From NCBI GenBank assembly GCA_964564415.1, contig CAZMAV010000009.1:80341-144340 (forward strand): a stretch of DNA of 64,000 bases, written 5' to 3'. The stretch is from an uncultured Bacteroidia bacterium (GTDB lineage Bacteria; Bacteroidota; Bacteroidia; J057). Made by a program: the position numbers and the translations under genes. Below are positions 1 to 15,155 of the stretch, piece after piece (the stretch's first letter is position 1; each line of letters starts with the position of its first letter). The notes under the pieces were generated by a model. That model searched no databases. It was not told where the DNA came from and saw only the letters and a program-made list of their open reading frames with translations.

Positions 1-39
1 AACTAGATTAATGTCAGCCTTGGCCCAATCCAGTGAGTA

Positions 40-1005
40 CTAATGAAAGATTATTTTGGTGGCTCCGTTGCCGTATTTCTTGACATCTCCTTGTTCCACG
101 GCTTTTACTTCCTTCACCGTCTTTACTATTTTATGTACTTCCTTTTTGAGTTTCCCCTCACCGACTCCGTGAATAGCCACCAGGGAGGCATAGTTTTCCA
201 TAATGGCCTTGTCCAGGGTTTTTTGAAAATGATCTACCTGGGCCTTGAGCATTTCTGATGGTTTGAGCAGGTAGGGCCGCTTGACAAGCTCCTCTATGTG
301 GAGGTCAACTTCGCCTTCCATGCGAGGCTTGGCTTCGTCAGCTTTTTTGATCTTGACAAACTCATTTTTCTCAATGGCGTTGACATCCTTGAATTGCTGA
401 TCCTCTCTTATGGAAAATGTCCAACCATCCTTGTTGAGCAGTTTGAGAAACTTGCTGGGCTTAAGGAGCCTCCCTTTGTCCCAGGGGAGTTCACGCTGCA
501 CGGGAGAGTGGGGAAAGCCCCGACCCGGAAGAAACTGCAGCACCTGAAAGTAGAAACTCTTGATTTTATTGAGCTCGGATTTATCGATCAGCATAAGTCG
601 ATAATGCTCCCCCGACTGCAAGGTTCCCGCGGCAATTCCATCGAAGCGCTTTCCGGTCTTGATGTAGCAGGTAAAAAGTATATCTACCGGCTCGGGATTG
701 ACGAGGTTGATCACATAGCGATGCTCGTCCTCACTGTTCACCACCATGCTCAATTCGACGATAGAAGTGCCCAATTGTTTGATGCTCTTGTCCAGCCGTT
801 GGCTGACCTTTTCGTCTACCTCGGCGGTTTTTCCCAGGTAGGCCGTCTCTGTGCTGTCAATGGGTATGATTTCGTCTATTCCTACATCAATGGGAAAGTC
901 ATCTCCCATGTCCACCTCTACATTCCTTTTGTCTATAAGCCTTGTGATGACTCCTGTACCACTTTCGTGAAGCAAACGTACCTTTTGACCTACCCTGTAA
1001 TTCAT
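40..1005 (-). CDS. Smr-domain protein (DUF2027-like N-terminal region plus C-terminal Smr/MutS2-type domain)
   Basis: The C-terminal 'VDLHIEELV...LVAIHGVGEGKLKKEVHKIV' matches the Smr-domain signature (DLHG-like motif plus GxG). The ORF is complete at 321 aa. Confidence 0.6.
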   Translation of the reverse strand: MNYRVGQKVRLLHESGTGVITRLIDKRNVEVDMGDDFPIDVGIDEIIPIDSTETAYLGKTAEVDEKVSQRLDKSIKQLGTSIVELSMVVNSEDEHRYVINLVNPEPVDILFTCYIKTGKRFDGIAAGTLQSGEHYRLMLIDKSELNKIKSFYFQVLQFLPGRGFPHSPVQRELPWDKGRLLKPSKFLKLLNKDGWTFSIREDQQFKDVNAIEKNEFVKIKKADEAKPRMEGEVDLHIEELVKRPYLLKPSEMLKAQVDHFQKTLDKAIMENYASLVAIHGVGEGKLKKEVHKIVKTVKEVKAVEQGDVKKYGNGATKIIFH

Positions 1006-1324
1006 ATCTTCCTGCTAAAATGAAGTTTCCTGCAAAAAACGATTTCTACCTAGATTTTTTTGAAATAAAAGAGAAAAACAACTGCCTTAATTAGAGGCAT
1101 TCAGACTTTTTTTCAAAAAAATCAATTTTTTTAAACTTTGTCGAAACTTTTTTTAATACGTGGAGTAGACTTGACTGTTATAAGGTAGACCAATCCTTCC
1201 ATTTTTTGTTCAACCCATAAGTCCGATTAAAAATGTTAGTTCCAAAACAACATATGGGAATCCTGAGAAGCCAGATGATCTGTCGCCAGATAGATTCAGA
1301 TTTGCTCAATGGGTTTGAAAGTGC

Positions 1325-1408
1325 GGAATCCGGGTGTGTGCAAAGGAAACAGGAATGACTTTGCAGATTTCTTCACACACCCGAACCTAAATCGTTCGGG
1401 TTTTTTTT
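1325..1408 (+). ncRNA. Candidate small structured RNA ending in an intrinsic terminator
   Basis: Nested stems: gggtgtgtg (1332-1340) pairs with cacacaccc (1374-1382), and inside it gcaaag pairs with ctttgc. A terminator hairpin cccgaac-ctaaatc-gttcggg is followed by T8 (1380-1408). The flanking 600 bp has no ORF. Confidence 0.25.
1380..1408 (+). terminator. Rho-independent terminator (7-bp GC-rich stem followed by T8)
   Basis: Stem cccgaac / gttcggg with a 7-nt loop, followed by tttttttt. Confidence 0.6.
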
Positions 1409-1879
1409 GTCTTCACATATTCATCTGATCGAACGCAGTCAGATAAGTTGCTTGATTATCAATCGGTTACTATTGTTTTCCTGCCTCTTGGATCATAATC
1501 CCATATGTCCAAAACTGAATTTAGGACAATTGGACGGACCTCATCAGGCATGTTACTGCTGAAGAATGGGCCATAAGCATTGTTCTTCTGGGCTTGGGAA
1601 AGCTATGCGTAGATCCGCTTAGCTTGGACCGACAGAGCTTTGATCTGACGGTAGTGGGAGAGGTATGCAGGGGTGTGACATTTTGATGCTAATACATACA
1701 ACTATTAGGTCCTTCTCAGGATGTGGTCAACAGTAAAGTTCGACAAGAGAATGTCAGGCTGTGAAGGAAAAACTGAAGGCTGTTGGGCAGGCATCCAACA
1801 GGGGAGAAAATATTGTAATTCGTTCTTTTTCACATACTTGAGGGGTGTAGTAGCGATAAAGAAATTTATCGCTACGCCT

Positions 1880-1954
1880 GACTCGGAAGTCCTATGGTGG
1901 GACGCCACATTGTCTATGTGGTAGCAGCGGGTTCGATTCCCGTCCGGGTCGCCA
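1880..1954 (+). tRNA. tRNA-Asp (GTC), CCA encoded
   Basis: The cloverleaf folds by hand: acceptor gactcgg/ccgggtc (one G-U pair), D-stem gtcc/ggac, anticodon stem ccaca/tgtgg with loop ttGTCta, T-arm gcggg-ttcgatt-cccgt, then discriminator g and cca. An 11-bp perfect hairpin (1849-1875) lies immediately upstream. Confidence 0.85.
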
Positions 1955-2120
1955 GGATCAAGGCCTTTCCCCTAGCATGGCAAAATAAAGTGGGAAGCGA
2001 TTGAGCTTAGCTTAAAGCTTCACACCCGACAAAAGGAGCCATGACTTGACCGGAATATGGCAGGTATCCAGCCTTGGAAGTCCCAAGGTTATGAGCTTTG
2101 ACGTACGAATGATTTGGCAA

Positions 2121-2189
2121 AACGCCCTAGCTTAAAGGACTAAAAGCGGCCTTAGAGGGTAGATATGGGTTCGATTCCCATGGGCGTTC
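2121..2189 (+). tRNA. tRNA-like element with a perfect acceptor stem and T-arm but no canonical D and anticodon arms (possible pseudo-tRNA)
   Basis: Acceptor aacgccc/gggcgtt is 7 bp and the T-arm atggg-ttcgatt-cccat is perfect. The 5' 46 nt (ta gctt aaaggactaa aagc ggccttagagggtagat) cannot form a 5-bp anticodon stem with a 7-nt loop. Confidence 0.35.
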
Positions 2190-2222
2190 ACCGAGAAAGG
2201 CTTTGATGAGCCTCTCCTTCAC

Positions 2223-2293
2223 TGCCCGATAGCCTAGCGGCAAGGCACCACATTTTGGCTGTGGAGACCCAGGTTCGAATCCTGGTCGGGCAT
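2223..2293 (+). tRNA. tRNA-Gln (TTG)
   Basis: U1-A72 acceptor tgcccga/tcgggca, as is typical of Gln tRNAs. Anticodon stem ccaca/tgtgg with loop ttTTGgc. T-arm ccagg-ttcgaat-cctgg. Confidence 0.8.
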
Positions 2294-2299
2294 CTTTTC

Positions 2300-2370
2300 C
2301 TATCCGAAGCGCAATGGCGGCGCACAAGTCAGGGAGACTTGGGGTGTGGGTTCGATTCCTGCCGGATAGT
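2300..2370 (+). tRNA. tRNA-Pro (GGG)-like; anticodon loop cagggag carries an unusual A33
   Basis: C1-G72 acceptor ctatccg/cggatag, typical of Pro. D-arm gcgc-aatggcg-gcgc. Anticodon stem caagt/acttg with loop caGGGag. T-stem gtggg/cctgc has two G-U pairs. Confidence 0.55.
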
Positions 2371-2374
2371 CTCT

Positions 2375-2446
2375 GGAACTATAGCTTAGCAGGTAGAGCG
2401 TCTGACTGAAGATCAGAAGGGGGTGGTTCGATTCCACACGGTTCTA
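2375..2446 (+). tRNA. tRNA-Phe (GAA)-like with a non-pairing acceptor stem (possible pseudo-tRNA)
   Basis: Canonical D-arm ta-gctt-agcaggta-gagc. Anticodon stem tctga/tcaga with loop ctGAAga. T-arm gtgg-ttcgatt-ccac. The 5' end ggaacta is not complementary to the 3' end cggttct. Confidence 0.4.
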
Positions 2447-2456
2447 CATTTTTGAG

Positions 2457-2539
2457 GGAACGCGTCAACGAAGGAAGGTTGAACCTGTCTGTAAAACAGG
2501 TGCTTTGGGGCTTAGTAGGTTCGACTCCTGCTCCAGACT
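2457..2539 (+). tRNA. tRNA-Tyr (GTA)-like class II element with a non-pairing acceptor stem (possible pseudo-tRNA)
   Basis: D-stem caac/gttg. Anticodon stem cctgt/acagg with loop ctGTAaa. Long variable arm. T-arm gtagg-ttcgact-cctgc. The 3' acceptor tccagac has no complementary 5' partner; the nearest complement, agtct-ct-gga, lies at 2368-2377, inside the Phe-like element. Confidence 0.3.
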
Positions 2540-2612
2540 CCCGATTGTATTTGCAAAGACCCGGCAAACCCTCTTAAGGCCAGCCGGGTCCTCAAACTGA
2601 TTTCAAATGGGC

Positions 2613-3818
2613 TTACTCGTTGGGATTCATGATTTTACCTAAAAAAAGGATGGTATTAGACTCGAGGTCTCGAATCACGAGCAGGAAAGGACGATCCACC
2701 CGAAGGGTAGGAGGAACTGAGGTAAGGCCTACCTCTACAGAAGTAGCACCAGCAGCTTCCAGGCCTCCTTCTTCGATCTTCAAAAAAGTCTTGTGCTTAA
2801 CTCTTGAAATAAAAAGATTGGAGCTTTCAACTACTCCGCTTAGATCAGCCGCATTTTTACGGAAAGCCTTCACCATTCCCAAACTTTTCATGGTCTCCTT
2901 CAATTCTTTTTCATATTTGATCTCCATCTTAGGAAAGATGACTATAAGTTGGGTTTCGCCCTGAAGATCCTGGATGAGGCTATCGTAAAAATCAGTAGAA
3001 AGAGAGGGAATCAAGTCAGCAGGTCTCTTTTCCGATTTTGGCAAAATAATATCCATGGCAAATTCTGGTTCATCTTTGCCGATAAGCAAAGTAATGGCTT
3101 GAAAATCAGGACGGTCGAGATAGCGAAATTGTGAATCGTGAAACATCATGTCAACGTCTTCCTGGGTATTGGAATCCGGAAAAAATGTTCCTGAATGGGT
3201 ACTGTTTTCCAAAAAAGGCTGGTTCCAGGGTCCCTTGAAGTAAATGGTATTGACCAAAAACATCACGTCTTGAGAACTGATGTTGCTGATGATGTTCTTG
3301 ATGCGATCTTCCGTTTGATCGGCTACCCACTGATTGATTTTGTCCTTGGCGGAAGGGTTTTCAAAATCCAAGGCTTCTACCTTGCTCTGAAAATTATCCT
3401 CGGCTTGACCGATAAAATCACTTTTGGGATTCAGCTCCTGCCTATGGTAAATAGCATTGGCGATGCTTAGCTGCAGCTTGCCATCTGAACGGACAAGCTT
3501 AAGGAGTAGGTTTTTGTATTGCTCGTTGAGTTTTTCCTCATCAAGCCCAGAGAGATGGAGGGCTTCGTAGATTTCTTGTTTTGTTTCTCCTTCTGCTCCA
3601 TTGGAGGTCATGCTAATGGCAGAACCTATGCTCAAGGGTGAGATGAAGATATTTTTATCGGGTTCTTCAGAGTCCAGAACTTTGAGCATTTGAAAGCCCA
3701 TTTCATTGTTGGCCTGGCTGACGTCCTCAAAGGTGGAGGAGGCTACATCTACAGGCTCCTCACAGGAGAGAAGACCAAAGATCAAAATCAGGCTGCTCAG
3801 GTGGATGATGGTTTTCAT
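2613..3818 (-). CDS. Serpin (serine protease inhibitor) family lipoprotein
   Basis: 401 aa. Lipoprotein signal 'LIFGLLSC'. Serpin core motifs 'NTIYFKGPWNQPF' and 'FLVNTIYFKG'. Reactive-centre-loop hinge 'KIEEGGLEAAGATSVEV' followed by '...RVDRPFLLVIRD...ILFLGKIMNP'. Confidence 0.85.
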   Translation of the reverse strand: MKTIIHLSSLILIFGLLSCEEPVDVASSTFEDVSQANNEMGFQMLKVLDSEEPDKNIFISPLSIGSAISMTSNGAEGETKQEIYEALHLSGLDEEKLNEQYKNLLLKLVRSDGKLQLSIANAIYHRQELNPKSDFIGQAEDNFQSKVEALDFENPSAKDKINQWVADQTEDRIKNIISNISSQDVMFLVNTIYFKGPWNQPFLENSTHSGTFFPDSNTQEDVDMMFHDSQFRYLDRPDFQAITLLIGKDEPEFAMDIILPKSEKRPADLIPSLSTDFYDSLIQDLQGETQLIVIFPKMEIKYEKELKETMKSLGMVKAFRKNAADLSGVVESSNLFISRVKHKTFLKIEEGGLEAAGATSVEVGLTSVPPTLRVDRPFLLVIRDLESNTILFLGKIMNPNE

Positions 3819-3961
3819 AAGGGTTTGGATTTTGTATTAAATTACTATCTAGAATTTAAAATTCAAATTCCTTCTTCTTCAGGCGAAAAAGCCGGAAATA
3901 ATCCTGCCTTTTTTTCTCTTTATCTCCAAATAAGGGTAACACAGCATGTTTCCAGAAAACG

Positions 3962-4046
3962 GGAAGGATGGCAGAATGGTAGTGCAACTGTTTCGAAAAC
4001 AGGAGTTGTCCTCCGGGACATGGGGGTTCGAATCTCTCTCCTTCCT
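3962..4046 (+). tRNA. tRNA-Ser (CGA), class II with long variable arm
   Basis: Acceptor ggaagga/tccttcc. Anticodon loop ttCGAaa. Variable arm agttgtcc-tccg-ggacat. T-arm ggggg-ttcgaat-ctctc. Confidence 0.75.
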
Positions 4047-4063
4047 CCTGTTCAAAGATCAAT

Positions 4064-4138
4064 GTACAAGTAGCTCAATGGCAGAGCACCTGGCTGTTAA
4101 CCAGGGGGTTGAAGGTTCGAGTCCTTCCTTGTGCGCCA
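4064..4138 (+). tRNA. tRNA-Asn (GTT), CCA encoded
   Basis: Acceptor gtacaag/cttgtgc. D-arm gctc-aatggca-gagc. Anticodon stem cctgg/ccagg with loop ctGTTaa. T-arm gaagg-ttcgagt-ccttc, then g and cca. Confidence 0.85.
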
Positions 4139-4212
4139 CAGGAAAAGGCCAAATATAAAGGAGGTAATCCAGCAACATCCAAGGCCGGCAGGAAGGTCCT
4201 GCCCCTGTGACG

Positions 4213-4300
4213 GGAAGTGTTAGCCGAATGGCAAGGCACCCGATTACTAATCGGGAAACCCGTACAAGCGGGTCTGTGGGTTCGAGTCCCATCGCTTCCG
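4213..4300 (+). tRNA. Class II tRNA with predicted anticodon ACT (a Ser-AGU reader with A34), unusual
   Basis: Acceptor ggaagtg/cgcttcc. Anticodon hairpin cccga-ttACTaa-tcggg. Long variable arm with stem cccg/cggg. T-arm gtggg-ttcgagt-cccat. Confidence 0.5.
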
Positions 4301-4321
4301 CAAACTCCTAACATTGGCAGC

Positions 4322-4395
4322 ACCCGGACGGCGCAATCGGCAGACGCATCAGGCTTAAACCCTGTTCGAGTGCGGGTTCGACTCCGCTCCGGGTA
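4322..4395 (+). tRNA. tRNA-Leu (TAA)-like but only 74 nt: the class II variable arm is missing and the T-stem is one base short (possible pseudo-tRNA or indel)
   Basis: The arm-by-arm architecture parallels the canonical bacterial tRNA-Leu(TAA) structure: acccgga .. gcg-caatcggcaga-cgc .. tcagg-ctTAAac-cctgt .. gcggg-ttcgact-ccgc .. tccgggt. The variable region is only 6 nt, and the T-stem 3' strand is ccgc where cccgc is expected. Confidence 0.4.
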
Positions 4396-4458
4396 CTTTT
4401 TATCCCAAAAGCGGGTGATAGGCCTACTTTTTCTTGACGCAAACTTGCCGTCTTTCAT

Positions 4459-4531
4459 GGTGGCCGTAGGGCAATGGTAGCGCATCGGATTGTGGCTCCG
4501 AAGGCAGGGGTTCGATTCCCTTCGGCTCACC
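4459..4531 (+). tRNA. tRNA-His (GTG) with G-1 and a one-nucleotide bulge in the 3' acceptor strand
   Basis: G-1 followed by gtggccg. Anticodon stem tcgga/tccga with loop ttGTGgc. T-arm agggg-ttcgatt-ccctt. The 3' end reads cggcTcacc, where cggccacc would pair perfectly with the 5' strand and C73. Confidence 0.7.
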
Positions 4532-4710
4532 CTCCTGAATCCCTAAAACTCCAGCAAAATGAAACGCGTAATTACCTACATCATCTCTGTGATGATCCAT
4601 AACAGAGCCATGAGGCATGGATGGCGAAAAACTCCCCCAGACCCTCCTCTTTCCAATGGGGAATCCCCTTTGACCGCCAACCTTCCCCCAGGAAGATCGT
4701 TTAGCTGTTT

Positions 4711-5091
4711 ATGAATGAAAGAGACCAAGCCCTACTTGAAATGAGGCCTCGACTCTCCCTCGACAACAGCAAGGCCGGGGAGGCAGAAAGTTTCCAAAAT
4801 AATACCCTTCGTCCCATCCTTAAATTACAAAATCCCCTGCTCAAAATCATGGTAAGGGGGTGGCTTGACGCCCACAAACAAGACCTGACCCAGCAGGATG
4901 GCAAAGAGGCAAAAAAACTGATCGAACACATCCTCAAGACCAACAAAGGACTGAGAGCCACCCTTTTTGCTATGGTGGTGGGACTGATGACGGAGGAAGA
5001 AGTGGAGGAATACCTTCAGCACAAAAGAGAAATGAATCGAAGGTTGACCACCATGCTCATTCAGCGACTTCAGGATCAACTGATGTTGTAA
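4711..5091 (+). CDS. Hypothetical protein
   Basis: 126-aa ORF with an ATG start and no recognisable motif. It sits in the region of gene remnants. Confidence 0.35.
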   Translation: MNERDQALLEMRPRLSLDNSKAGEAESFQNNTLRPILKLQNPLLKIMVRGWLDAHKQDLTQQDGKEAKKLIEHILKTNKGLRATLFAMVVGLMTEEEVEEYLQHKREMNRRLTTMLIQRLQDQLML

Positions 5092-5279
5092 ATATTCCTA
5101 TTTGTCAACAGGAGTAGATCATCCGTCTGTTACCTGGAATTGACCCCTGATCAGCGAATCCTAACAGCCTGCCACACTTATATCGGAAAGTGAAGTTTTA
5201 TCGTTCATATTTATGTTTAGGAAAACGCCTGTGGCAAGGCTAATCCTAGGATTATCAACCCCAATAATTCAGTACATTC

Positions 5280-5465
5280 ATGGTTAGAGTACAATTTAAG
5301 CCGATTGCCCCTCAACTTGAGAGAGATATTCTGGACCTCCTGACCTACAAAGGCAAAATCGCAGCCATGAAGCGCTACATCGAGATTACGGGCGCCCGCG
5401 TCCACGATGCCAAGATCGCTGTAGACCGCATGAGCAGAAACATTGAACCCGGCCAGGCCCTCTAA
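5280..5465 (+). CDS. Small protein with weak resemblance to the ribosomal L7/L12 C-terminal domain fold
   Basis: 61 aa. 'KGKIAAMKRYIEITGARVHDAKIAVDRM' resembles the L7/L12 C-terminal domain 'KIAVIKAVR..TGLGLKEAKDLVD'. Confidence 0.3.
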   Translation: MVRVQFKPIAPQLERDILDLLTYKGKIAAMKRYIEITGARVHDAKIAVDRMSRNIEPGQAL

Positions 5466-6115
5466 GGAAGATAAATCGAAGGATTTCTCTTCCCTGAGCC
5501 TCCTTTTCCTCTATTACGTAAATGCACCCTGAGTTTTTGCTGAGATCAAGCCTGGCCTTTCTATCCGTGAAGGTAGCCAATGGTCGGTAAGCCTTACCCC
5601 TAACGTCTGGCAGTTTCATCTCCCTCATCATTTGGTCTTTCTCCTGCCATTCCTAAATCAATATTTTTCCATTTACCCTCAGTAGATGCCCCTTCCAAAA
5701 AGGGATGGAGACCTGCGTGTTTGGGTTTAGGTCATTTTCTGCCCAGGCAAAATAGATGACCTGAATTTCTCCCTGTTTCCCAACTTCATGGGTAAAATAG
5801 CCTTTCATCCATTTTTTACATCAAAGCAAATTTTCATTTGACTCTATGCGAAAACATGTCTTGATCACTCTGAAAGTAGCCGACCGCCAAAAAGCCGTCG
5901 GTGATGCTGCGAATCCCACCTAGGAGGAAGGTTTACAGGCTTCCTGCCCATTTTTCCCCAATACCAGCCTGTACGGTAAAATCAGAGAATCATGGCAAAT
6001 CGTCAAAACCGAAGGGCCTGTTTTCAGCAAGATCAATACCAGGAAGAGCTGTTTCGCCGTTTGCTGAGGGAGGGTAAAGCGAGGTTTTTAGTTCAAAAAG
6101 AAGAAAAAGCATCTG

Positions 6116-6622
6116 TTGCGAATGGGTTTTGATGAAGGAAATGCCCTCCGGGAAGCCCTTGCAGCTATGCAACACGAAGCTTACGACAAAAAAGGCAGAG
6201 AGGCCAAACTCGAAATTTTGCAGGCTCTGCTTCGACAGCCCCAAAATTTCATCAAGCACGAGATTTTGAGTGAGGCAGCCCTCATGCCGGACGCCCGCCA
6301 GGGCTACGGACTTCCCATCGGGGGGGTCCTGGCTACGGAAAAATCCGTCATCCCCTACGCTGTGGGAGTAGACATTGGCTGTCGAATGGCCCTCTCGGTC
6401 TTCGATTTCAAAGCTGATTTTTTGGAGCGTCAGAAGCGTGAACTGCTGGACCCCCTTCGTGTGCACACCTTCTTTGGTGCTGGAAAAGGGCCTGACCAAC
6501 CCATGGAAGACGAGGCCCCCATCGCATACAAGGACATTTGGGAAGTCATGGCTCAGCAGGAGGATCTGGTAGACATTGTAGGTAAGTTTTCTCCAAAAAT
6601 CGTAAGGATGGCTGGCGATTGA
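6116..6622 (+). pseudogene. rtcB: rtcB remnant: the RtcB N-terminal segment joined in frame to the RtcB C-terminal tail, with the central catalytic region (~240 aa) missing
   Basis: 'LMPDARQGYGLPIGGVLATEKSVIPYAVGVDIGCRM' resembles the conserved RtcB N-terminal region (recalled consensus 'VMPDVHLGKGSTIGSVIPTKGAIIPAAVGVDIGCGM'). The C-terminus 'EDEAPIAYKDIWEVMAQQEDLVDIVGKF' resembles the RtcB C-terminal tail (recalled consensus 'IDEIPMAYKDIDAVMAAQSDLVEVIYTL'). The total is only 168 aa, whereas full-length RtcB proteins are about 400 aa. Confidence 0.6.
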
Positions 6623-6830
6623 TGTCGGCACTGAGAAGGAAACTTATCTCAAGTTAATTTTTTGTTAAGAAATAAAACGAAAACCGAATTAGGCTGAATT
6701 TGCTCTATGTGAATCCGGCCTTTCTTTTTGTAGTCAGGTTAAAAGGCCTCTTTAAATCTTGTCATGGTCGCTTGGATATGTTTTCATTCTTCAGTTTGTA
6801 TATCTTTGCAGGGGAAAAATATACGACCTC

Positions 6831-7148
6831 ATGAGATTATTCGTTTTGTGTGTCTTTTTTATTCCTATCTGGCTGGCAGCTCAAGAGCCTTCCAAAGGGG
6901 AAGCCCACACTGAGGATAACATCATTGCCTATATTCCAAGTGAAAAAGTCCTCTTTGGAAGCTGTGTGGTCAAGTCCCTGCGGGCAGACAAGGGCAACAC
7001 CACCCATGCCAACCTCTTCATGTGGCCCGAAACCGTCAAAAAAGTGAGAAAGAAATACAAGATCGCCGAAATCGTCATCCCCGGCCACGGACAGCCCGGC
7101 GGATTGGAACTGCTCGACTATACCATTCGCCTGTTTTCGAAGCGCTGA
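6831..7148 (+). pseudogene. Subclass B1 metallo-beta-lactamase remnant: a signal-peptide-like N-terminus joined to the C-terminal third; the HxHxD zinc-binding region is absent
   Basis: 'KGEAHTEDNIIAYIPSEKVLFGSCVVKS...ANLFMWPETVKKVRKKYKIAEIVIPGHGQPGGLELLDYTIRL' resembles the conserved C-terminal third of subclass B1 metallo-beta-lactamases (recalled BcII- and IMP-1-type consensus 'GHTEDNIVVWLP...ILVGGCLVK...VVPGHGEVGD'). It is preceded directly by 'MRLFVLCVFFIPIWLAAQEP'. The whole ORF is only 105 aa. Confidence 0.6.
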
Positions 7149-7247
7149 GCAGTTTTTCCCTTTTTATTCTAAAAATTGGATATGATGTATTTTACATCAT
7201 CTGGGTTGAATGCCTATATTTATCCACCTAAATGAGAGGTCCTCCCC

Positions 7248-12874: not shown

Positions 12875-13750
12875 TTATTCTTTGATCAATCTCCAGGTTT
12901 TCTGGTACTCGTTTTGGCTTTCCCTGACTTGGAGGTGATAGATGCCTCGGGGCAGGTCTGATATGTCGATCTGTCTTTCTTTACCATTGAAAGCCAGATT
13001 TTTGATCTTTCGACCCTGAAGATCCAGGAGGCTCAGGTTCCAGTTACCTTCAAAAGGCATTTGGATGTTGACAAGCGTAGAACTGGGGTTGGGGTAGAGG
13101 AGGGGGGTGGCAGGTATGCCTTCTTGGGCTTCTATGTCTTGACCGGCTTTTTCTGTTTCTCCCAGTTTTATGATAGCTAGCTTATGGCTCTTGCGGATGA
13201 TTTTTTTCCAAAGCCTCAGAGTCTTGCGCTCGTTGGCGTCCACTTCGTAGACATCCTGAGTATAGGAGGTACTTCCTTCCTCCTGAATTTCTCTTTTGGA
13301 CTCACGGATCAAGCCTACCTTGCCCTCTTTGATCCACTTTTTCCAATACTCATCATAGTCCTTGGTGTAGAGGGCCGAAATCAAGTTTTTGCTGCTTCCA
13401 TTGCCCAATTTGAAGGCTTCTATCCTCCATTTTCCACTTTTTGGGTCTTGCTTTTGAAGAAAATAATGGCTTCCCCTCTGGTGAATTTCTCCCTGAAAAA
13501 GAATGTGATCCTTAACATCGGTCTGAGAAGAGTAGACGATAAACTGATGGGGAAGTAGGCGGTGGAAGTCCAGGGTGTCGCTGACGACTTCTCCATTTTC
13601 ATCTTCAAAGGACCATAAATAGCGTCCCTGGAGAGAAATGGGATCACTGCCTTCTATTTTTTGATTGAAGAGGATAAGATCACCACAGGCAGAAAGAAAA
13701 ATTGCTGCCAGGCTAAGTAGGAGGATAATGGGTGTACGCATGAATGACAA
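12875..13750 (-). CDS. Secreted protein (lipoprotein-type signal peptide) with a T9SS C-terminal sorting domain
   Basis: 291 aa. Signal 'IILLLSLAAIFLSAC'. The C-terminus 'LLYPNPSSTLVNIQMPFEGNWNLSLLDLQGRKIKNL...RGIYHLQVRE' is a T9SS sorting domain. Confidence 0.6.
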   Translation of the reverse strand: MSFMRTPIILLLSLAAIFLSACGDLILFNQKIEGSDPISLQGRYLWSFEDENGEVVSDTLDFHRLLPHQFIVYSSQTDVKDHILFQGEIHQRGSHYFLQKQDPKSGKWRIEAFKLGNGSSKNLISALYTKDYDEYWKKWIKEGKVGLIRESKREIQEEGSTSYTQDVYEVDANERKTLRLWKKIIRKSHKLAIIKLGETEKAGQDIEAQEGIPATPLLYPNPSSTLVNIQMPFEGNWNLSLLDLQGRKIKNLAFNGKERQIDISDLPRGIYHLQVRESQNEYQKTWRLIKE

Positions 13751-14133
13751 GAGTTAAGTTCTTACAATATACCAGGGTTTTTTTAAATTCAGTAAACCCC
13801 AAAAGGCCAATTCTTGACCTTATTCGAATATACCTAGCTTTGGTCCAGATGAAAAAGGGTTAAAATTGCAGGCAGAGAATTCGACTTCTGAGGGGGAAAA
13901 GCTGCGGCCATTGCGCTATTATTTGGAGGGAATAGTGATTACCCCGAATGCATGCTTCAAGCGCTGCTGGAATTCCCATGAATAACTTGTGTTCAACTTT
14001 AAGAGCCCTATTAGTTTTTTCGTACAAAATTGATTTGTGATAAGCATTAATTTTTGGGCGATTATTAAACCCGGGAGTAGAAGGGAAGTCTAAGGGGTAA
14101 TTAGACAGTTATCAAATAACAAGAAACAAAAAA

Positions 14134-14562
14134 ATGAAACTTTTTCAGCAAAAATCCCTTACTCTTTTTCTTCTTTTCTCTCTTCTAGCATCCCTGTCTG
14201 TGGGTTCGGCGCCCCTGCTCCCGCCCTCCCAATCTTTTCTCCGCTGGGAAATGCTGGGAGCCCGCAAGATCAAGTACCGGGTCGAAAGAGACGAAATCTT
14301 GGTTACTGCCCGTGAGGGAGGTTTTACTGCCGTGAAGCTCAAGTTTCTACATGCCCCTGTCAATATGCGTAGGATGACTATTCACTTTAGAAATGGAGAT
14401 ACACAGGAGGTCGTGTTAAAAAATAATTTTGTCCCTGGGGGCGAATCCCGTGTGATTGACCTCAAAGGGGGGAAGCGGGTGATCAGAAAAGTGGTGTTTT
14501 GGTATGATTCTAAAAACAGAGCAGCACGAAGAGCCACGATTCAGTTGTGGGGTAGACACTGA
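14134..14562 (+). CDS. Hypothetical secreted protein
   Basis: 142 aa with an N-terminal signal peptide 'LTLFLLFSLLASLSVGSA'. Confidence 0.5.
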   Translation: MKLFQQKSLTLFLLFSLLASLSVGSAPLLPPSQSFLRWEMLGARKIKYRVERDEILVTAREGGFTAVKLKFLHAPVNMRRMTIHFRNGDTQEVVLKNNFVPGGESRVIDLKGGKRVIRKVVFWYDSKNRAARRATIQLWGRH

Positions 14563-14630
14563 TTCATGGATGTGCAGACGTATTCATGGGGTGGGGCACC
14601 TTTTTGGGGTGCCCCTATTTATGTCTGAGA

Positions 14631-15155
14631 TTATGAGTTGGCTTTTTCGGCACGAACTTTCAGGGCTTCATTCATGGCCTCGAAATTTCTCAGGGTCTCC
14701 TCTCCGATCCGCTTCATGATGCTTTTGCTAAGCAACCCTGAAAATGACTCTCCATGAATGAGGCGGCAGCGGTCCTGGCCAAGGTCCTCCAGTCGAAAGG
14801 AGTGCTTTCCTTTGAAGAGGCCCAGGGGAAGGGAGCCTCGCCATTCGAAGCTTTGGCCCCCCTCAAGTTCGGTTACCACAGGAGAAAAGACCTGTACCCG
14901 TGCCTCCGTCTGCATGTGGGTTTTGAGTCGCTCTCCCACTTCGAGTTTTCCTTCGATTTTTATGATAAAGGGGTTCCATTCTCCATAAGCCCGAAAGTCG
15001 GTGAGGATGTCCCAGACTACTGCCTGGCTGGCTTGGATCAGGATTTCTGTCTGGATTGTGGGGAAACTGTCTTGAGTGGCAGGCTTTCTAGATTTTTCGC
15101 TTAGGGCAGTCATAGGTATGTAATTTAGCTTTTTGGAAAAAGATTTTACTTCCAT
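14631..15155 (-). CDS. SRPBCC (START / polyketide-cyclase-like) family protein
   Basis: 'IQASQAVVWDILTDFRAYGEWNPFI' is a typical SRPBCC N-terminal signature. Confidence 0.6.
   Translation of the reverse strand: MEVKSFSKKLNYIPMTALSEKSRKPATQDSFPTIQTEILIQASQAVVWDILTDFRAYGEWNPFIIKIEGKLEVGERLKTHMQTEARVQVFSPVVTELEGGQSFEWRGSLPLGLFKGKHSFRLEDLGQDRCRLIHGESFSGLLSKSIMKRIGEETLRNFEAMNEALKVRAEKANS

Follow-up and report, generated by a model that had tools for sequence, protein, structure and literature searches.

A probable degraded tRNA and RNA-repair operon with a long-resident serpin gene in an uncultured Bacteroidia bacterium

A stretch of 64,000 nucleotides from an uncultured Bacteroidia bacterium (GCA_964564415.1, contig CAZMAV010000009.1, positions 80,341 to 144,340), referred to here as the window, carries near its left end a cluster of tRNA genes that is split by a serpin gene on the opposite strand. 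We propose that positions 1-7150 of the window are quite probably a degraded chromosomal operon of a Bacteroidota group, one that combines a spare set of tRNAs with RNA-repair genes and in which the serpin has long been resident. The window would then be a snapshot of a non-essential operon in the course of being dismantled, and not a fresh serpin island, as a first-pass annotation of the sequence had suggested. Several modes of dismantling can be seen side by side: the loss of Ro60 and of its Y RNA, stepwise deletions whose junctions have short sequences in common, recombination between tRNA T arms, and mutations in anticodons and stems. Amid this decay, the serpin gene, embedded in the operon but unrelated to it, persists under selection.

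tRNA genes were called with ARAGORN and checked against the Rfam tRNA family RF00005 (gathering score 29 bits). There are nine in the entire 64-kb window, every one on the + strand and in two blocks, 1880-2447 and 3962-4532, and Rfam supports eight of them with 36-70 bits, tRNA-Pro(GGG) falling below the gathering score. The first-pass annotation had counted eleven tRNA-like sequences on this strand in two clusters; nine of these are tRNA genes, and the other two are real but atypical, one being an RNA without an anticodon loop and the other a chimera of tRNA-Tyr and tRNA-Cys. The remnant cannot be a complete back-up set, because its nine tRNAs cover only eight amino acids. The array, the serpin gene, and the remains of the genes around them are as follows.

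1439-1815: site of the Ro60 (TROVE) gene of relatives, about 380 bases without detectable Ro60
1880-1954, + strand: tRNA-Asp(GTC), which opens the array and has its CCA end encoded (ARAGORN, Rfam 50.2 bits)
2223-2294, + strand: tRNA-Gln(TTG) (ARAGORN, Rfam 66.5 bits)
2300-2371, + strand: tRNA-Pro(GGG), weak (ARAGORN only)
2375-2447, + strand: tRNA-Phe(GAA), with acceptor-stem mismatches specific to the window (ARAGORN, Rfam 51.9 bits)
2456-2541, + strand: chimeric pseudo-tRNA, 5′ part of tRNA-Tyr(GTA) and 3′ part of tRNA-Cys joined in shared T-arm sequence (comparison with L168)
2613-3818, - strand: serpin of 401 residues, predicted lipoprotein, antisense to the array and the sole gene between the tRNA blocks
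3962-4048, + strand: tRNA-Ser(CGA) (ARAGORN, Rfam 48.6 bits)
4064-4138, + strand: tRNA-Asn(GTT), with an encoded CCA end and identical to the L168 copy (ARAGORN, Rfam 70.4 bits)
4213-4301, + strand: tRNA-Ser(ACT) (ARAGORN, Rfam 43.3 bits)
4322-4396, + strand: tRNA-Leu(TAA), damaged (ARAGORN, Rfam 35.8 bits)
4460-4532, + strand: tRNA-His(GTG), with a D-stem mismatch (ARAGORN, Rfam 48.3 bits)
5992-6108, + strand: remnant of PcfJ-like gene 1, first 39 codons (tblastn, 95% identity to residues 1-39 of PcfJ1 of L002)
6110-6622, + strand: remnant of the RtcB RNA ligase gene, with an open reading frame (ORF) at 6116-6622 (Pfam RtcB, E=1.3e-21, profile positions 11-83 of 426 plus the C-terminus)
6831-7148, + strand: right flank, what is left of a DUF4440 gene (first 25 codons) fused to what is left of a gene for a 248-residue protein (residues 166-248) (tblastn)

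The comparison with relatives covered 64 kb of the window genome and about 21 kb per relative locus. The closest loci, L002/L167, L003, and L168, are metagenome contigs with 93-96% DNA identity to the window, and it is against these that decay was judged. L004 and L005 are loci from Bacteroidota metagenome-assembled genomes (MAGs; GCA_022760475.1 and GCA_039817415.1, respectively) whose DNA is about 70% identical to that of the window; L007 is the same locus as L004, and L008 the same as L005. Three array loci without a serpin (L171, L201, and L202) were reached via homologues of a 61-residue protein encoded beside the array and of Ro60. Serpin is also absent from the arrays of marine bacterium AO1-C (L172) and of a closely similar coral-metagenome contig (L199).

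The intact form of the operon can be seen in several of these relatives. In L004 and L005, a divergent Smr gene is followed by genes for Ro60 (TROVE), 14-18 tRNAs, the serpin on the opposite strand, 9-10 more tRNAs, and proteins of 126 and 61 residues, and then by two to four PcfJ genes, an HNH gene, a GNAT gene, and finally RtcB (468 residues), the L005 locus ending before RtcB. All genes from Ro60 on, save the serpin, lie on one strand in a single long unit. Among the serpin-less loci, L171 has Ro60, 26 tRNA genes, the 61-residue gene, PcfJ, HNH, two GNAT genes, and RtcB; L201 has Ro60, 48 tRNA genes, a 63-residue gene with a weak Ribosomal_L12 match, HNH, and RtcB; and L202 has Ro60, 22 tRNA genes, genes for 127 and 60 residues, GNAT, and RtcB, its array starting with Asp, Gln, Thr, Pro, and Phe in an order that is nearly that of the window. 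By the same ARAGORN counts, L004 has 23 tRNA genes, L005 has 28, and L168 has 12. All 20 amino acids are covered in L171, L201, and L202 and 19 of them in L004 and L005, and in these five loci, as in the window, tRNA-Asp opens the array, there as the first array gene after Ro60.

The linkage with repair genes is equally recurrent. Downstream of the array, L002, L004, L171, and L201 have both HNH and RtcB, L005 has HNH, and L202 has RtcB; RtcB is intact (443-468 residues) in L002, L004, L171, and L202, and the L201 copy (466 residues) extends past the end of the locus. Matches to the YrlA-like family RF02553 were found in three intact arrays (L004 13013-13071, L005 13597-13733, and L171 11951-12077). 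In L172, Ro60 is followed by 23 tRNA genes and an RLIG1-like ligase gene, and L199 has 18 tRNA genes. Both of these arrays (L172 12033-18025 and L199 11964-18040) contain tandemly duplicated blocks, with four to five copies of Met, Val/Ser-ACT repeats, and Glu/Gly repeats; they carry the RLIG1-like gene instead of RtcB, and calls of “tRNA-Ser(ACT)” recur in them. Linkage extends to viral contigs with Ro60 in IMG/VR, 9 of 25 of which have 6-42 same-strand tRNA genes within 10 kb.

Compared with L002, L003, and L168, the window has five deletions, each junction having 8-15 bases common to both sides. All five lie within 4.4 kb and are concentrated in the operon and its right flank, the adjacent cyclomaltodextrinase gene being intact. 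Deletion 1 (junction 2515-2529; L003 3231 and 2967 by blastn) runs from inside tRNA-Tyr to inside tRNA-Cys and took tRNA-Leu(TAG) with it; the resulting chimera is called neither by ARAGORN nor by the Rfam tRNA model. Deletion 2 (junction 6095-6108; 3.75 kb, L002 7707-3953) removed PcfJ1 from codon 40, PcfJ2, HNH, GNAT, and the start of RtcB. Deletions 3 and 4 (junctions 6275-6282 and 6509-6518) are both inside RtcB, of which about 168 of 468 residues are left; by coordinate arithmetic from the blastn pieces, these are approximately residues 3-65, 116-196, and 432-468, with about 66-115 and 197-431 deleted. Deletion 5 (junction 6897-6905; L002 2271 and 1388) brought the first 25 codons of the DUF4440 gene together with the final 83 codons of its neighbour, the gene for the 248-residue protein; L002 and L007 have intact copies of the two downstream of RtcB. 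We rejected an assembly artefact as the source of the five deletions because an independent Logan assembly (L001) has the same structure and because the 8-15 bases shared at the junctions are shorter than the k-mers normally used by assemblers. The first-pass annotation had noticed decayed genes just downstream of the array, and the PcfJ, RtcB, and DUF4440/248-residue remnants bear it out; its reading of this decay as a mark of serpin integration does not hold, since the decayed PcfJ and RtcB genes are members of the array operon itself.

Near the left end of the operon, Ro60 has also been lost. By blastn, window 37-1438 corresponds to L004 16714-15318 and window 1816-2188 to L004 13511-13123, and Ro60 of L004 lies at 13517-15040. 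A tblastn search of window 1380-1900 with three Ro60 proteins gave nothing better than E=0.18. Rfam at relaxed thresholds, run on window 1000-5300, returned tRNAs only, with no YrlA match at E<=10 and neither Pedo-repair nor any other Rfam family. L168 likewise lacks Ro60, and the Ro60 gene and the YrlA-like RNA appear to have been lost together, because both are absent from the window and from L168.

Point mutations accompany the deletions. Four window tRNAs score 10-15 bits lower in Rfam than their L168 counterparts: Phe (51.9 vs. 63.0), Ser(ACT) (43.3 vs. 52.9), Leu(TAA) (35.8 vs. 51.0), and His (48.3 vs. 60.2). tRNA-Phe differs from the L168 copy by three substitutions, including G7 to A, and has non-canonical pairs flagged in the Rfam search; in tRNA-Leu(TAA), U8 has become C and the T arm has lost one base. 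In tRNA-Ser, G34 to A has turned the anticodon GCT, which is found in the 94-96% identical relatives, into ACT, and G9 has become T. The ancestral order of the tRNA genes is still recognisable in the window. The weak tRNA-Pro(GGG), as read from the sequence, has an A at position 33, where U is normally invariant, and its T stem contains two G-U pairs; the L168 copy is identical to it, and the L005 and L202 arrays likewise include a Pro-GGG gene.

In the scheme that these observations fit, the intact unit comprises, on one strand, a leader, Ro60, tRNA-Asp, a structured RNA, an anticodon-less RNA, a YrlA-like RNA, and about 20-48 tRNAs for 19-20 amino acids, followed by the 61-residue L12-like protein, one to four PcfJ-like proteins, an HNH nuclease, a GNAT acetyltransferase, and RtcB. 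When tRNAs or translation are attacked or stalled, for instance by tRNA-cleaving toxins or ribosome-targeting antibiotics, the operon would supply a replacement tRNA pool, RtcB would re-ligate cleaved RNAs, and Ro60 with its tRNA-like RNA would handle or scaffold damaged ones. The serpin would act independently, as an exported or surface protease inhibitor. In the lineage of the window, Ro60 and the YrlA-like RNA would have gone first, a loss common to L168, with the array shrinking to 12 tRNAs and then, in the window, to nine. The five deletions would then have taken the 3′ part of tRNA-Tyr, tRNA-Leu, and the 5′ part of tRNA-Cys, two PcfJ genes, HNH, GNAT, two-thirds of RtcB, and two flanking genes. 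Such losses would be tolerated if the array tRNAs were redundant with a dispersed housekeeping set.

The serpin has fared quite differently from the operon around it. The first-pass annotation was right to place a 401-residue serpin as the only gene between the tRNA clusters: it is full length, with residues 35-399 matching PF00079 profile positions 1-370 of 370 (E=2.6e-107). The predicted lipoprotein signal and the reactive-centre-loop hinge that it described also stand up at the level of sequence. The N-terminus, MKTIIHLSSLILIFGLLSC, has a hydrophobic stretch ending in LLSC, with Cys18 invariant in four close homologues, and the acidic residues that follow (CEEP) are reminiscent of the Bacteroidetes surface-export signal. 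The PDB matches are conserpin (E=9e-62), 5ncs (E=7.5e-56), and the chains 5nct and 5ncw (about 6e-49), the last two named miropin and 5ncs and 5ncu being labelled only “Serpin”. In conserpin carrying the alpha-1-antitrypsin loop, the counterpart of the serpin loop EEGGLEAAGATSVEVGLTSVPP is EEGTEAAAATFLEAIPMSIPP, an alignment that makes P1 a Thr and P1′ a Ser. The hinge has the expected small residues (P15 Gly and P12-P9 Ala/Gly), with one deviation at P14, which is Leu and not Thr/Ser, and G351, E353, A354, G356, A357, and T358 are invariant in the clade. The ratio of nonsynonymous to synonymous substitution rates (dN/dS) of the serpin is 0.20 against its 92% identical homologue, compared with 0.044 for Smr (against L168), 0.04 for cyclomaltodextrinase, 0.12 for the 126-residue gene, and 0 for the 61-residue gene. 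The serpin is thus a working gene under purifying selection with somewhat relaxed constraint, because 0.20 is to be set against the 0.04 of Smr and cyclomaltodextrinase.

Was the serpin recently transferred into an ordinary tRNA-cluster hotspot, with the downstream decay as collateral damage? We give this a slender chance. Its composition is somewhat unusual, with a GC content of 43.5% against a window ORF mean of 49.5% (standard deviation, SD, 2.4) and a third-position GC of 48.5% against 56.7% (SD 4.3), and homologous arrays without a serpin exist. Elsewhere, serpins do not favour such sites: as a negative control, 0 of 80 other bacterial serpin loci lay in a tRNA array, and 2 of 80 had a single tRNA nearby. 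The nearest homologues (P0001, P0003, and P0004) are 92, 55, and 49% identical to it, and the next, outside this clade, are at about 39% and come from many phyla; a metagenome profile scan with the serpin alignment gave, among the matches listed, distant serpins at 27-39% identity, the best full-length one at 37%. Against this, the deviation of about 2-2.5 SD is mild, codon usage is unremarkable (distance rank 18 of 33 window ORFs), so that the composition carries no island signature, and the dN/dS of 0.20 is that of a maintained gene. No integrase or transposase was found within 10 kb among the called genes of relatives or the window ORFs; no repeat search was made, so that att-like repeats are outside the scope of this negative. 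The genes deleted downstream in the window are operon members that sit intact beside the same serpin in L002. Above all, the L002/L168, L004, and L005 arrays, the last two in DNA only about 70% identical to the window, have serpins with 92, 55, and 49% identity at the same place and in the same orientation, between the same flanking genes. This synteny largely matches the outcome that the first-pass annotation had itself set as a refutation of its reading, and any acquisition must be old, because the position is shared with relatives whose serpins have diverged to 49-55% identity. What can be kept of the proposed horizontal acquisition is a past insertion, which is plausible because homologous arrays without a serpin exist (L171, L201, and L202); judging from this distribution, a single insertion long ago in the ancestor of the window/L004/L005 group is most likely. 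That the serpin is instead a functional part of the system, for example by blocking proteases that process or import tRNA-cleaving toxins, is extremely unlikely. Its position inside the array has been kept over deep divergence, and the protein is predicted to be exported or lipid-anchored, but it lies on the opposite strand and is absent from four homologous Ro60-array loci (L171, L172/L199, L201, and L202). Moreover, the window keeps it intact and under selection after its repair genes were gutted, and L168 shows the reverse, a disrupted serpin beside intact PcfJ and HNH. This suggests that the serpin functions independently of the array, because of the reversed pattern and the four array lineages that do without it. 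In L168 (4639-5628), the gene is cut to 329 residues without the reactive-centre loop by indels, possibly through sequencing error.

Two further alternatives concern the array itself. It could be a housekeeping tRNA operon, built up by accretion, in a Ro60/RtcB neighbourhood that is coincidental; bacterial tRNA genes often form operons, and those of the array are co-oriented with short spacers. We regard this as highly improbable, given that only eight specificities are left in the window and that members have been lost or damaged, which would be lethal for a sole set. In addition, many array tRNAs score low, Pro-GGG lacks U33, and the linkage of Ro60, array, and RtcB/HNH recurs in at least six distinct Bacteroidota loci as well as in viral contigs, while just two of 80 loci with homologues of the 126-residue gene, L007 and L008 (that is, L004 and L005), have an array. 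The first-pass idea of the tRNA cluster as an ordinary integration hotspot likewise gives way to that of a remnant of a long tRNA array linked to Ro60 and RtcB. Alternatively, the locus could be the remnant of a mobile element (a prophage, plasmid segment, or integrative and conjugative element, ICE) that brought in array, Ro60, RtcB, PcfJ, and serpin and is now being purged. Long tRNA arrays (L-arrays) have been reported to spread horizontally, and they and tRNA array units occur on plasmids, ICEs, and phages (PMC8421152, PMC4758250). Furthermore, Ro60 with tRNA arrays is found on IMG/VR viral contigs, PcfJ takes its name from a protein of a conjugative plasmid, the locus includes an HNH nuclease, and the distribution among Bacteroidota is patchy, with Tellurirhabdus (L173), for instance, having Ro60 but no array. 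A mobile origin is nevertheless very unlikely in our view. Synteny between window/L002 and L004 extends to Smr at the left flank and to DUF4440 and the 248-residue gene at the right, and Smr also flanks the L005 and P0127 contig loci; the syntenic flanks therefore suggest that the locus has long been inherited vertically at a single chromosomal site. Within 10 kb there are no genes for integrases, phage structural proteins, or conjugation, a scan of viral contigs with PcfJ found no relatives, and a PADLOC scan of all island proteins returned no system, only generic HNH similarity. None of these four alternatives fits the synteny and the pattern of decay as well as a degraded operon with a resident serpin does.

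Several points nevertheless weigh against that interpretation. The architecture rests on four to seven independent loci, mostly metagenome bins, and the YrlA-like matches, 0.4-0.5 kb downstream of Ro60, reach 42-45 bits (E 5e-8 to 6e-6), under the gathering score of 69. tRNA-Ser(CGA) scores higher in the window than in L168, and some of the differences between their tRNAs could stem from the L168 lineage. The serpin may have been lost in other lineages instead of gained in one sub-lineage. The proposed role in stress and repair is carried over by analogy from work on Anabaena and on Salmonella/Deinococcus, and the array tRNAs are putatively supernumerary, with the tolerated loss or damage of members as indirect support and with the 64-kb window and about 21 kb per relative as the extent covered.

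Apart from its tRNAs, the window retains a number of candidate new RNAs, namely an anticodon-less element, a structured spacer, and a leader with a terminator, to which a short hairpin can be added.

1180-1412, + strand: conserved non-coding element resembling a leader or small RNA, located upstream of Ro60 in relatives
1850-1875, + strand: hairpin directly 5′ of tRNA-Asp, with the conserved motif TTGAGGGGTGTA ahead of it (read from sequence)
1955-2121, + strand: structured spacer RNA of about 170 nucleotides between tRNA-Asp and the anticodon-less element (RNAalifold)
2122-2192, + strand: tRNA-shaped RNA without an anticodon loop (alignments, covariance model)

The element at 2122-2192 has a 7-bp acceptor stem, a D arm, and a T arm, with a 4-bp stem and 4-nucleotide loop in place of the anticodon arm. 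Four other loci have conserved copies (L004 13122-13190, L005 13783-13852, L171 11688-11766, and L168 3684-3757), with a short-stem loop of 3-4 nucleotides across loci (UUCG in L171 and GUGA in L004, for example) and covariation of acceptor pair 7 among C-G, A-U, and G-C. A covariance model of the element, R1, gives 79-96 bits only in the window, L168, L004, L005, and L171, and no more than 43 bits with ordinary tRNAs. We conclude that the element is confined to this group, because the model found no further copies in 36 loci, viral ones included. Rfam labels the L004, L005, and L171 copies as tRNA (43-52 bits) and not that of the window; ARAGORN calls the L171 copy, which has an encoded ACCA end, “tRNA-??? 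(tc)”. The element always follows tRNA-Asp, just downstream of Ro60. It is distinct from YrlA, because its own ends form the acceptor stem; the YrlA-like sequence of L171, by eye, has a T arm, a closed acceptor-like stem-loop, and then a D arm, which would be the YrlA topology (cf. PMC4201824).

The spacer before it is also likely to be folded, into several helices. In the alignment of the window, L168, L004, and L005, from which the structure itself was derived and which holds only three independent lineages, 98.2% of cells are paired and 13 of 56 pairs have changed on both sides, compared with 0-3 in slid controls. In the window and L168, the sequence after tRNA-Asp can pair with that after the tRNA-like element, closing a unit of 250 nucleotides. 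The motif TTGAGGGGTGTA is found at the equivalent position in L005 and L171, there too with a hairpin, of different sequence. Further upstream, the leader can be aligned to the sequence between Smr and Ro60 in L004 and L005 and has no Rfam match under the relaxed search of window 1000-5300. It contains a hairpin, GGGUGUGUG...CACACACCC, at about 1322-1376, whose last three bases are shared with an intrinsic terminator (1379-1401, CCCGAAC...GUUCGGG and a U run). L171 and L172 have hairpin and terminator ahead of Ro60 too, with compensatory changes in 5 of 13 pairs, and their retention next to each other in five lineages suggests an attenuator-type regulatory leader or a small RNA. A further hairpin, GACCCGGC...GCCGGGTC, lies in 2541-2612, between the end of the first array block and the serpin stop codon, and may be a bidirectional terminator between convergent transcripts.

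The remaining protein genes of the locus flank the array or follow it.

40-1005, - strand: Smr/DUF2027-domain protein of 321 residues, left flank, divergent to the locus (Pfam Smr, E=1.5e-9)
4711-5091, + strand: protein of unknown function of 126 residues, conserved in L002, L004, and L005
5280-5465, + strand: protein of 61 residues, possibly like the C-terminal domain of ribosomal protein L7/L12

The Smr protein is 76% identical to its L004 homologue, which adjoins Ro60, and an Smr neighbour is also found in L005, L168, and the P0127 contig. The 126-residue protein was tried as an island marker and rejected: it has about 400 homologues in Bacteroidota, and among the 80 loci inspected, arrays were present only at L007 and L008. 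It is therefore a widespread gene and not array-specific. The 61-residue protein, by contrast a companion specific to these arrays, follows the array in every intact locus with RtcB, including L171, L201, and L202, and has only five homologues in 5.8 billion proteins; a metagenome scan with it gave no confirmed match. Identity between the window and the intact-array MAG homologues is 49% for the 126-residue protein and 87% for the 61-residue one, which across L002, L004, and L005 is 82-100% identical, where the L004 and L005 serpins reach just 55 and 49%. Its own Ribosomal_L12 match is sub-threshold (E=0.1), and that of the L201 homologue (PF00542) is likewise “weak”.

If the wider pattern holds, Ro60-headed long tRNA arrays might constitute a distinct and so far undescribed family of Bacteroidota operons for RNA repair and spare translation, with 1955-2192 encoding a new functional non-coding RNA; this is a tentative proposal, which we think is less likely to be true than false. 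The core order in such a family may be leader, Ro60, tRNA-Asp, structured RNA, anticodon-less RNA, YrlA-like RNA, 20-48 tRNAs, L12-like mini-protein, PcfJ, HNH, GNAT, and RtcB. The RNA at 1955-2192 is still in the window after the loss of Ro60 and Y RNA, and it could possibly serve as a second Ro60 partner, as a decoy for tRNA-targeting enzymes, or as a sensor. We found no description of Ro60-headed tRNA arrays in Bacteroidota in a literature search of incomplete coverage, which is a weak sign of novelty.

Turning to known systems, the serpin resembles miropin and other Bacteroidota lipoprotein serpins in its full-length, by sequence inhibitory-type fold, its N-terminal lipoprotein-type signal with Cys, and its Ala-rich hinge. 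It differs from the miropin type in its distant sequence, in having Thr at P1 and Leu at P14, and in the location of its gene inside a tRNA array. As for the array, tRNA array units have been defined as at least 20 co-oriented tRNA genes at a density of at least two per kb (Tran et al. 2016, PMC4758250). The arrays of L004, L005, L171, L201, and L202 reach both the number and the density, whereas that of the window has the density (nine tRNAs and two pseudo or atypical ones in 2.65 kb) without the 20 genes; it is a reduced derivative of a tRNA array unit and not a full member.

Phages provide another point of comparison. Ro/TROVE proteins with tRNA-like partners have been described as a platform for RNA repair found alongside the tRNAs and RNA ligases of phages (Iyer et al. 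2021, PMC7824862). The Bacteroidota arrays resemble the tRNA sets of jumbo phages and mycobacteriophages, in which many tRNAs occur with an RNA ligase and Ro60 and are read as a counter to tRNA-targeting nucleases (PMC7824862), but the locus in the window lies on a chromosome, between conserved cellular genes and with no phage genes in its vicinity. In Salmonella Typhimurium, the rsr-yrlBA-rtcBA operon (Chen et al. 2013, 2014, PMC4201824; Hughes et al. 2020, PMC7790460) shares with the intact relatives the union of Ro60, a tRNA-mimicking RNA that in the relatives is putatively YrlA-like, and RtcB in one same-strand unit. The relatives differ from it in having 20-48 true tRNA genes between Ro60 and RtcB and in the added anticodon-less RNA, whose topology is opposite to that of YrlA, with the ends forming the acceptor stem. 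RtcA and RtcR also set the two apart: no gene of the RtcA or Sigma54_activat families was called within 10 kb in L004, L005, L171, or L202, and L201 has a sigma-54 activator 9.5 kb upstream. The window stands further off, with neither Ro60 nor Y RNA and with RtcB reduced to a fragment.

The architecture of the intact relatives fits that of L-arrays, which have been reported from several phyla, Bacteroidetes among them, as supernumerary arrays that spread horizontally and hold up to 43 tRNA genes (Santamaria-Gomez et al. 2021, PMC8421152). Those of cyanobacteria show linkage to, and co-regulation with, an HNH gene and rtcB, and in Anabaena, the L-array is silent until translation is impaired, when it is co-induced with rtcB (PMC8421152). 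The HNH and rtcB linkage is found in the relatives of the window, and the window itself keeps only the RtcB remnant, its HNH gene having been deleted. Bacteroidota arrays differ from L-arrays in being headed by Ro60 and a YrlA-like RNA, in their extra companions (the 61-residue L12-like protein, PcfJ paralogues, and GNAT), in their chromosomal and syntenic, not plasmid-borne, location, and in the antisense serpin of one sub-lineage; the window copy differs further in its mere nine tRNAs and its decay. In other respects, they are like the L-array of PCC 7120, with tens of co-oriented tRNAs separated by short spacers, roughly one or more per amino acid, some pseudogenes among them, a patchy distribution, linkage to HNH and rtcB, and rearrangements, deletions, and duplications between relatives. 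That Ro60 and a Y-like RNA are conserved neighbours of complete tRNA sets and RtcB, both in several lineages of Bacteroidota and on viral contigs, joins two lines of research that are usually separate, L-arrays and translational stress on the one hand and RNA repair by Ro60 and Y RNA on the other, and there are carriers that are cultivable or sequenced, such as marine bacterium AO1-C, in which to ask what Ro60 does with tRNAs.

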